Part shown: positions 4,798 to 5,308 of the stretch, in pieces
Layout: every line of letters begins with the position of its first letter
Position numbering within the stretch: position 1 is the stretch's first letter
IMG/VR virus record: IMGVR_UViG_2698536618_000007
Length of the DNA: 6,207 nt
Reading direction: 5' to 3' (one strand)
Source: a virus
Lineage: Duplodnaviria > Heunggongvirae > Uroviricota > Caudoviricetes
Translations under genes and position numbers: made by a program
The notes under the pieces: model-generated
The model's input: only the letters and a program-made list of their open reading frames with translations
The model's database searches: none
Told to the model about the DNA's origin: nothing

Positions 4798-4918
4798 TAC
4801 CAATTAAAAATTATCAACTGGGCATTGTGCTCATTCAGTAAAGAACTAATTCCTATCTTTGCTCTAGGTAGTAATATTAAGCCACCGCAATAATATCTTT
4901 ACCTAACGGCGTAAGAAT

Positions 4919-4945
4919 CCCGGTCACCGTGCCGGGTTTTCTTTT
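4919..4945 (+). terminator. Candidate rho-independent terminator downstream of the repressor gene
   Basis: GC-rich hairpin CCCGG(T)-CACCGT-(G)CCGGG at 4919-4936, followed by TTTTCTTTT at 4937-4945. Confidence 0.55.
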
Positions 4946-5072
4946 GCCCTCCCCTCATCACACACACCGTTAAAAAAACCACCATAACCTCGCTTCAGTT
5001 ATCGCTATGCGATTCAAGTCACAAAATAAATCCATCCTAAATACAACCAGTTATATCTAAAGCAACCAATAA

Positions 5073-5132
5073 AACAACTTTTGTTGTTGACGATAAAACA
5101 ACTATAATTTTAAATAAGTTCATCGCAACAAC
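5073..5132 (+). promoter_or_regulatory. Candidate oL/pL region: cluster of AACAAC/GTTGTT repressor half-sites with TTGACG and TATAAT hexamers
   Basis: AACAAC at 5073-5078, 5097-5102 and 5127-5132; GTTGTT at 5083-5088, forming AACAAC-TTTT-GTTGTT; the same half-site as the oR palindrome. TTGACG (5087-5092) and TATAAT (5103-5108) are present but only 10 bp apart; alternative -35 TTGTTG (5081-5086) gives a 16-bp spacer. Exact promoter geometry is uncertain. Confidence 0.4.
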
Positions 5133-5308
5133 ACAACGATACGGCAACTACCTGATTCACCGTTGCGATGACCGCTTAGATCCGCAGTTTGAATTTCAGC
5201 AGGCTTCGGGGAGTGCGAGGGGTGAAACGGACGCGTGAACGTCGGTGTGACCAGCTGAAATTAACTCAACATTTCATACCTTAGTCGCTTCAACGAGGCG
5301 GCTTAGTT

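Follow-up and report, generated by a model that had tools for sequence, protein, structure and literature searches.

The early-left leader of a lambda-family phage without N

The DNA analyzed here, hereafter the window, is a stretch of 6,207 nucleotides (nt) from a virus of the Caudoviricetes (IMG/VR record IMGVR_UViG_2698536618_000007). The list of its open reading frames (ORFs) and family searches showed that it contains a lambdoid early region, in which the plus strand corresponds to the direction of transcription from the early-left promoter pL. We focused on the interval between the stop codon of the repressor gene (4797) and the ORF starting at 5309, which is the left boundary of the immunity region in a lambda-family phage that lacks gene N and has the gene order of phage 4A7. 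Lambda N and its nut sites form the textbook model of processive antitermination, and the put RNA of phage HK022 is, to our knowledge, the only well-studied RNA alternative to it. A previous interpretation of the stretch, made without database searches (the sequence-only reading), had proposed that a structured pL leader takes the place of N in this interval, and our analyses confirmed the presence of a conserved and partly structured leader.

As had been stated before, the ORF list contains no ORF of 60 amino acids (aa) or more between 4797 and 5309 on either strand. The only ORFs of at least 30 aa in the gap are one of 36 aa on the minus strand and one of 31 aa on the plus strand. The earlier statement that no N-like ORF precedes gam was right about the absence of N itself but had overlooked the second of these, an arginine-rich ORF at 5189-5284 that is discussed below. 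A terminator scan recovered the terminator-like hairpin that had been noticed at 4919-4945 on the plus strand, 122 nt past the repressor stop codon. This sequence (CCCGGTCACCGTGCCGGG followed by TTTTCTTTTG) consists of a 6-bp stem with five G-C pairs (4919-4936) and a T-run (TTTTCTTTTG), i.e., it is a G+C-rich hairpin plus T-run at the end of a transcription unit, and it is the intrinsic terminator of the repressor (immunity) transcript. Homology with relatives that carry different upstream cargo begins at positions 115 to 131 of the query, mostly at 122, which corresponds to 4919 of the window.

The oL operator cluster (5037-5113) contains AACAAC/GTTGTT half-sites and a palindrome at 5071-5088, and it shows inverted as well as direct matches to oR (4034-4077). 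Promoter pL (5087-5122, plus strand) has TTGACG (5087-5092) as its -35 and TTAAAT (5110-5115) as its -10 sequence. In gap-free alignments with the heteroimmune phages 4A7 and Perceval, TTGATA lies over the former hexamer and TATTAT over the latter, and the 4A7 promoter (TTGATA-17-TATTAT) scores 10/12. Alignment with lambda pL sets CAC-A-TCAG against TTC-A-TCGC, and the homology among heteroimmune phages begins exactly at 5122. Based on these alignments, the pL transcript probably starts at about A5122. A promoter/operator-like cluster had previously been placed at 5073-5132; the operators and pL are indeed present there, but positions 5116-5132 probably belong to the leader and not to an operator.

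The leader extends from 5122 to 5392 (271 nt), is untranslated or weakly translated, and heads the kil-gam-bet-exo operon. The first gene of this operon, kil (5393-5599, plus strand), encodes a 68-aa FtsZ inhibitor of the KilR/phi80 type and is preceded by the Shine-Dalgarno (SD) sequence AGGAG (5383-5387). Kil matches phrog_294 (E = 1.5e-37, profile positions 4-80 of 83) and the KilR-like NCBIfam model NF008465 (profile positions 1-70 of 73) at 57-58 bits, below the 92-bit cut-off of that subfamily; the homology to KilR/phi80-type Kil proteins extends over their 68-73-aa core. The NF008465 alignment begins at residue 29 of the 96-aa form that starts at 5309. A 68-aa form is annotated in phages HK225 and 4A7, and the core is 84% identical to HK225 Kil. 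Judging from these alignments, the 96-aa ORF at 5309 is best described as Kil with an in-frame N-terminal extension, the conserved core of which starts at ATG 5393. A 77-aa ORF (5358-5591), annotated in some records, was rejected as the gene; it has no family match, and the Kil homology lies in another frame. Separately, Rfam searches matched isrB, an Hfq-binding small RNA, on the strand opposite to the genes that follow shortly after kil in HK225 and in two prophages (loci L008, 3413-3510; L133, 3388-3485; and L153, 3379-3457; minus strand), with scores that equalled or slightly exceeded the gathering threshold; the window has no such match.

We then asked how strongly the leader is constrained, using nucleotide diversity computed across 93 distinct haplotypes. 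Diversity was 0.020 for positions 5156-5189, 0.0255 for the segment SL2 (5186-5266), 0.020 for the segment HP3-HP4 (both described below) and 0.024 for 5335-5392. The corresponding values for kil were 0.020, 0.023 and 0.086 at codon positions 1, 2 and 3, respectively, and 0.086 was also obtained for the spacer between kil and gam. Region 5156-5392 (0.020-0.026) is hence about 3.5-fold less diverse than the third codon positions of kil and similar to its first and second positions, which shows that strong purifying selection acts on it.

The interval is widely distributed. Phage PhiR34_1 is 99.5% identical to positions 4798-5674 of the window, and most or all of the interval is found, at 90-99.5% identity, in at least 16 deposited phage genomes that include PhiR34_1, Turner, 4A7, 4C10 and Perceval. 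It is also present (match over at least 80% of the interval) in 1986 of 5426 complete Escherichia coli genomes, about 37%. No N gene is annotated in the early region of 4A7 from int to lysis, where Q is the sole antiterminator listed, nor in the region of PhiR34_1 from int to ren. A literature search on lambdoids without N, on Bievrevirus or on these phage names retrieved nothing specific. These results demonstrate that lambda-like E. coli phages without N form a widespread and viable family, and that the absence of N, the viability and the abundance are all features of this architecture. They also refute the suggestion that the prophage is decaying and no longer functional, with N lost and the interval drifting. 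Nothing beyond the absence of N itself speaks for such decay, to which we assign a practically negligible probability: PhiR34_1, Turner, 4A7, 4C10, Perceval and others have been deposited as phages and show this arrangement, which also recurs in the E. coli genomes counted above, and synonymous sites are 3.5-fold more diverse than the leader.

Predicted and conserved RNA structures in the leader

Two inverted repeats able to pair had been pointed out in the leader, and both are present: the arms 5120-5129 and 5162-5171 are complementary at 10 of 10 positions, and the arms 5192-5203 and 5251-5262 at 11 of 12. The first pair would form SL1 (5122-5169, plus strand), a hairpin at the 5' end of the transcript (AUCGCAAC/GUUGCGAU) with 8 bp in the RNA and a C-rich loop of 32 nt; the first 2 nt of its first arm lie outside the RNA if transcription starts at A5122. 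SL1 did not fold better than shuffled sequences (z = -1.16; 25/200). In the L025-type immunity group, moreover, homology begins only at 5156, the 5' arm of SL1 being replaced. The first 40 nt of the leader (5122-5161), most of which correspond to the SL1 loop, are rich in C and poor in G (14 C and 5 G), a composition that resembles that of a Rho-loading (rut) site.

The second pair forms the basal stem (5192-5203/5251-5262, with A5201 and A5253 unpaired) of SL2 (5186-5266, plus strand), a predicted three-way junction whose further predicted parts are a variable hairpin a (5204-5220) and a hairpin b (5227-5246). Segment 5190-5264 folded better than shuffled sequences (z = -3.07; 1/200). The basal stem is predicted in 28 of 28 haplotypes, as is the 4-bp core of hairpin b, the full hairpin being predicted in 27 of them; the common change T5262C is accommodated by a register shift. 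The whole leader did not fold better than shuffled sequences (z about -0.5 to +0.5), and folding therefore distinguished SL2, but neither SL1 nor the entire leader, from chance. Compensatory pairs were not seen in SL1 or SL2, where we found only single transitions compatible with wobble pairing and occasional breaks, because the family is more than 94% identical. The arms of both repeats, apart from the one that is replaced, are thus conserved without covarying, which weakens the idea that they are the stems of a put-like element.

A further structure, overlooked by the sequence-only reading, is located between SL2 and kil. HP3 (5275-5311, plus strand) is a long interrupted hairpin whose 3' strand holds the SD sequence GAGG (5296-5299) and the AUG (5309-5311) of the frame upstream of kil. 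We aligned 10 diverse copies of it, namely those of the window, ENT1, HK225, phi80, HK639 and five prophages. In this alignment, 94.2% of the cells are paired versus 32-45% in slid controls, seven pairs are altered on both sides, and the covariation score was attained by none of 500 shuffles. Invariant in all 10 copies are the apical GAG (SD 5296-5299) and UUAUGAC (AUG 5309), which pairs with CAUA. HP3 is followed by HP4 (5319-5333, plus strand), a GCGG/CCGC stem with the conserved loop YAUCCA that lies within codons 4-9 of the upstream frame, and together the two fold with a z value of -3.82. HP3 is a real RNA structure common to phi80, HK639 and HK225.

HP4 is retained despite changes in the peptide encoded across it (MTTGGHPPP, MTRLSTALS or MKRLSNRND), and the constraint therefore acts on the nucleic acid and not on the peptide. 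The possibility that MTTGGHPPP is a conserved polyproline leader peptide was ruled out, as loci L141, L145 and L149 retain the hairpin and alter the peptide.

The block containing HP3 and HP4 (5275-5334) is common to HK225, three Enterobacter phages, phi80, HK639, CobraSix, S9-5 and several prophages, and the element has no Rfam entry. Among the loci compared, it lies at 2504-2562 of L155, 2483-2541 of L156, 2504-2563 of L008 and 2501-2560 of L009. In HK639, HP4 is annotated as a terminator. In phi80, the homologous block (32416-32475) is located directly after N and tL1A (JX871397), at the start of a broad t-L1 region (M11919). In ENT1, HK225 and HK639 it comes after the terminator of another gene, and in most relatives it directly follows an intrinsic terminator, whereas HP3 of the window is not preceded by one. 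Regardless of what precedes it, the block is located upstream of kil or early-left genes in phi80, ENT1, HK225 and HK639. As the sequence at its 5' side varies, the block travels with kil and the early-left genes and not with pL. The window and phi80, in which the order is pL-nutL-N-tL1A-tL1 region-kil, thus share the block and the kil family, but phi80 has nutL, a 98-aa N and the tL1A hairpin where the window has SL1-SL2.

Comparison with put, nut and N

We next examined whether the leader belongs to a known class of antitermination elements, because a put-like element as in HK022 and a divergent nut site had both been proposed for it. Phages HK022 and HK639 resemble the phage of the window in being lambdoids without N that have a structured RNA at or near the 5' end of the pL transcript, and HK639 also has the HP3/HP4 block downstream. 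Members of the put family are about 70 nt long and have two stems and the conserved sequence GAACGGC...CGUCGG...GGAUGA...CAAUG. HK022-type put RNAs affect RNA polymerase in cis, need no phage protein to do so, and lose their effect when the zinc-binding domain of beta' is mutated. As to position, the leader of the window fits this family, since it begins at the inferred +1 (5122) directly after pL in a phage without N.

An Rfam scan of the window with E values up to 10 returned chance matches only; Rfam holds no put model, however, and HK022 putL and putR themselves yield no match, so that this negative result is uninformative about put. We therefore built a covariance model, R2, from HK022 putL and putR. 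R2 found the put-like RNA of HK639, which is not part of the model, at 44.7 bits (E = 8e-12), but it found no match in the leader (5122-5392). Its best matches in the window scored 11.7 bits, within gene O, and 7.8 bits, at the terminator of cI. Similarly, blastn searches with putL and putR gave matches in HK022, HK75, phiEt88, HK639 and others, and none in the phage group of the window. Comparison of the leader with the pR-strand transcript, in the window and in 12 related loci, did not reveal a putR- or nutR-like twin, and only the operator repeats matched; HK639 also lacks putR, so a second copy is not strictly defining. Hence, the window leader differs from the put RNAs of HK022 and HK639 in having no match to their sequence or structure and no twin.

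A nut site was not found either. In lambda-type nut sites, boxA (CGCUCUU(U)A) is followed within a few nt by boxB, a hairpin with a short stem and a GNRA-like pentaloop. On the plus strand after position 5100, boxA (GCTCTTTAACAA) is not present within three mismatches. An exact copy, the only site in the window without mismatches, is located on the minus strand at 3748-3759, between cro and the YdaT/cII-like gene. Of 106 related loci, 38 have boxA on the pR strand and none has it on the pL strand. By eye, no hairpin is visible in the spacer that follows the pR boxA (3705-3747). GCTCTTTAACAA is also the boxA sequence of rrn operons, and its presence in a phage without N suggests that host Nus factors may give rrn-type protection against Rho to the right operon only. 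In the leader, hairpin b has a 6-nt loop (CGUGAA) and a G-G mismatch, no boxA adjoins it, and no hairpin there is linked to a boxA or matches Rfam. As for N itself, the arginine-rich ORF, of 20 codons and with a polymorphic stop, has no match to an N family. Taken together, these searches place the leader in neither the put nor the nut family, contrary to what had been suggested; the put model was silent while its control worked, and neither a boxA nor an N homologue was found.

A different RNA was observed in other leaders. This RNA, which we named "Module B", is a three-way junction (GCUUCGCGGUGGUGAAnUGC ... CACCACC-A-GCGAAG) with the conserved loops GUGAAUUGCAG and GAAGAUNAGC. It is present in L131 (2895-2993), L133, L135, L139, L151, L009 (2198-2293) and 88 IMG/VR loci (L157-L244), and it is located in the pL leader just before kil or the gene in the position of N in prophages of Citrobacter, Kluyvera, Phytobacter and Enterobacter. 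Module B is 98% paired, four of its pairs are compensatory, and Rfam contains no match to it; on visual inspection, the N gene of phi80 also seems to be preceded by a divergent version. Like SL2, it is a three-way junction with a bulged A in the 3' arm (CC-A-GC), and the prophages that carry it lack N and have it in the leader of their first early-left gene, which is often kil. Nevertheless, SL2 was rejected as a member, as a covariance model of Module B (R1, 56 sequences) finds ENT1 at 37.6 bits but is silent on SL2 of the window. In ENT1 and phi80-like leaders, Module B directly precedes the ribosome-binding site of the gene in the position of N, which indicates a role in the leader or in translation.

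The arginine-rich mini-ORF deserves separate consideration. It has 31 aa when read from TTG 5189 (5189-5284) and 20 aa when read from GTG 5222 (5222-5284, plus strand); it contains GVKRTRERRCDQ and reads ...GVKRTRERRCDQLK... In the shorter form it begins with (V/M)KRTRERRCDQLK... and has GGAG 8 nt upstream. It is in the frame of kil, and in the window only TAG 5282 separates it from the 5309 frame. Polymorphisms were counted in 118 copies. Position 5282 is T (TAG) in 49 and C (CAG) in 69 of them, a balanced polymorphism; a G to A change at 5222 creates an ATG start in 18; and a frameshifting 5-nt duplication, TCAAC (5260/5261), occurs in four to five. These variants explain why public "Kil" annotations are inconsistent, with lengths of 68, 96, 126 and 140 aa.

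It can be argued that the leader encodes, from 5222, a small arginine-rich peptide (M/V)KRTRERRCDQLK..., fused to Kil as an arginine-rich motif in the CAG alleles, which would either act as a minimal RNA-binding factor akin to N or be all that is left of an N gene with its body deleted. In line with this, GTG 5222 has a GGAG at a distance of 8 nt, the change at 5222 retains a start codon (ATG in 18 of the 118 copies), the first 13 codons are retained in all variants, the common polymorphisms at 5227 and 5272 are synonymous, RERR is encoded by GAACGTCG as in lambda N, and gene callers annotate "Kil" proteins of 126-140 aa that include the ORF. Against it, codon 21 is TAG in 42% of the copies and CAG in the rest, and four to five copies carry the frameshifting insertion. 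Polymorphic sites, read by hand, are not enriched at codon position 3 (about 5 of 13). The ORF matches no Pfam family and no N family among the PHROGs, its only PHROG match being Kil; and a search of 5.8 billion proteins with it returned 34 matches; those examined all belong to this locus, and no full-length N-like relative is among them. Shuffled sequences resemble the arginine-rich motif of lambda N as well as the ORF does in 133 of 2000 cases at the DNA level and in 176 of 2000 at the protein level, so that the similarity is not significant. Moreover, hairpin b, which is rich in G+C, overlaps the arginine codons and accounts for their composition as well as their conservation, and a peptide of 20 residues is without the NusA- and polymerase-binding parts that lambda N has. 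We therefore rejected the ORF as N or an N remnant on account of its missing family match, its same-locus matches and its non-significant similarity to lambda N; a peptide function is very improbable, and the mini-ORF is probably non-coding and not a gene.

Early-region context and possible roles of the leader

The remaining genes of the window fit its assignment to a lambda-family phage. A serine recombinase gene (87-497) and an EmrE/SMR efflux pump gene (752-1138), both on the minus strand, are located in the pR operon after ren, as they are in 4A7 and PhiR34_1; presumably they are the counterparts of the emrE-ybcK cargo of DLP12. Genes ren, P and O, a 179-aa YdaT/cII-like gene and cro are also on the minus strand. 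Gene O contains repeated UACCUGAUUnGGGUAAA units (2610-2709), which were the source of weak Rfam matches and look like origin iterons, as in lambda O. The cI-type repressor gene (4042-4797, plus strand), annotated as cI in PhiR34_1, encodes a helix-turn-helix domain and an S24 peptidase domain (Pfam HTH_3 and Peptidase_S24); as positions 4042-4066 are taken up by the oR palindrome, its translation probably starts at ATG 4111. Downstream of kil, a short form of gam (5675-5971) and bet (starting at 5978) are located on the plus strand, and positions 5593-5700 are 95% identical to lambda 33193-33087.

The early region of 4A7, a Bievrevirus, contains int, xis, exo, bet, gam, kil, immunity genes, O, P, ren, QacE/EmrE, a recombinase gene, ninE, rusA and the gene for a Q-like protein. 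The window shares with 4A7 and Perceval the order int-xis-...-exo-bet-gam-kil-pL-imm-cro-ydaT-O-P-ren-emrE-recombinase-...-Q, which we take to be that of DLP12 as well. From 5122 on, their leaders are 94-95% identical to that of the window; they differ from it in immunity (operators, cI and the cargo genes between cI and pL), the window being of the PhiR34_1/Turner immunity type.

Comparison with the pL-nutL-N leader of lambda provides a clue to the origin of the leader. Both are located directly left of cI, oL and pL and share an initial transcribed CAUC motif, and a 22-nt patch in SL2 (5197-5218) matches positions +76 to +97 of the lambda leader at 18 of 22 positions and at the same offset from +1, a match equalled by 11 of 1000 shuffles. 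In addition, the downstream gam-bet-exo genes and two terminators of this phage group are lambda sequences. On the other hand, the leader of the window has neither a boxA nor a boxA-linked hairpin that could serve as boxB, an N gene followed by tL1 is missing, and the first gene is a KilR/phi80-type kil and not N. The fold differs too, as the partner strand CACACACC of the large lambda hairpin is missing. The picture suggested by these comparisons is that of a lambda-type leader without nutL and N that was joined to a phi80-type tL1/kil module.

The reading that we prefer, with about even confidence, is that in a lambda lineage that naturally lacks N, the leader serves to control the toxic gene kil and the Red genes at the post-transcriptional level. 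After derepression, RNA polymerase would start at A5122, and the first 8 nt of the transcript may pair with 5162-5169 to form a 5'-terminal hairpin that could protect it from decay dependent on the 5' end. SL2, probably descended in part from the lambda N leader, would follow and may be a processing or protein-binding site, as the RNase III-sensitive hairpin in the N leader of lambda is. HP3 buries the SD sequence and AUG 5309 of the upstream frame and could in this way gate its translation. Ribosomes translating that frame would continue into kil and protect the RNA from Rho. Finally, kil would start at AUG 5393 behind its own AGGAG.

Several observations weigh against this reading. Two strong hairpins that resemble intrinsic terminators are located between exo and xis/int in the left operon of PhiR34_1 and 4A7, the first following exo and the second orf61 (6703-6725 and 7300-7318 in L002; 6659-6681 and 7256-7270 in L001). 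Both are identical to lambda sequences (31287-31265, which we take to be tL3, and 30689-30669). The retention of these lambda terminators suggests that a read-through device is needed for expression of xis and int from pL, and a model in which the leader is purely the 5' untranslated region of kil supplies none. Further, the 150 nt upstream of HP3 occupy the exact slot of nutL-N in phi80 or of put in HK639, and the constraint on SL1 and SL2 could reflect any function, including antitermination or a peptide.

The same observations raise the possibility that SL1-SL2 (5122-5266, 145 nt) is a new cis-acting antiterminator RNA that functions like put with an unrelated sequence and fold and replaces N and nutL. 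It would let pL transcripts pass the tL1-homologous HP3/HP4 block and the lambda-type terminators after exo. Its position directly after pL, in the slot just mentioned and upstream of a block annotated as tL1 or as a terminator in phi80 and HK639, is as expected for such an element. Likewise, the phages are viable although they lack N, the two strong lambda-identical terminators persist in their left operon, purifying selection on the leader equals that on protein-coding positions, and SL2 folds significantly better than shuffled sequences. Nevertheless, we consider this explanation unlikely. The put covariance model was silent while its control scored 44.7 bits, and the pR operon contains no second copy, though HK639 also has just one. 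SL1 and SL2 do not show compensatory covariation, one immunity type has the 5' arm of SL1 replaced, and the whole leader folds no better than shuffled sequences. Besides, expression of kil and the Red genes needs no terminator read-through, and Int can in principle come from other promoters.

The HP3/HP4 element, which is supported by covariation and outside Rfam, is a new candidate cis-regulatory RNA controlling a cell-division toxin. More generally, the phage of the window represents a very common and viable relative of lambda that has neither N/nut nor put, and yet has lambda terminators downstream and a leader under strong selection. Either its early-left operon runs without antitermination, which would change the view of the timing of excision and Red functions, or it uses another device. 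The finding would gain greatly in interest should SL1-SL2 turn out to act as an antiterminator, as it would then define a new class of RNA that makes RNA polymerase resistant to terminators, in a lineage that is present in about one-third of E. coli genomes.

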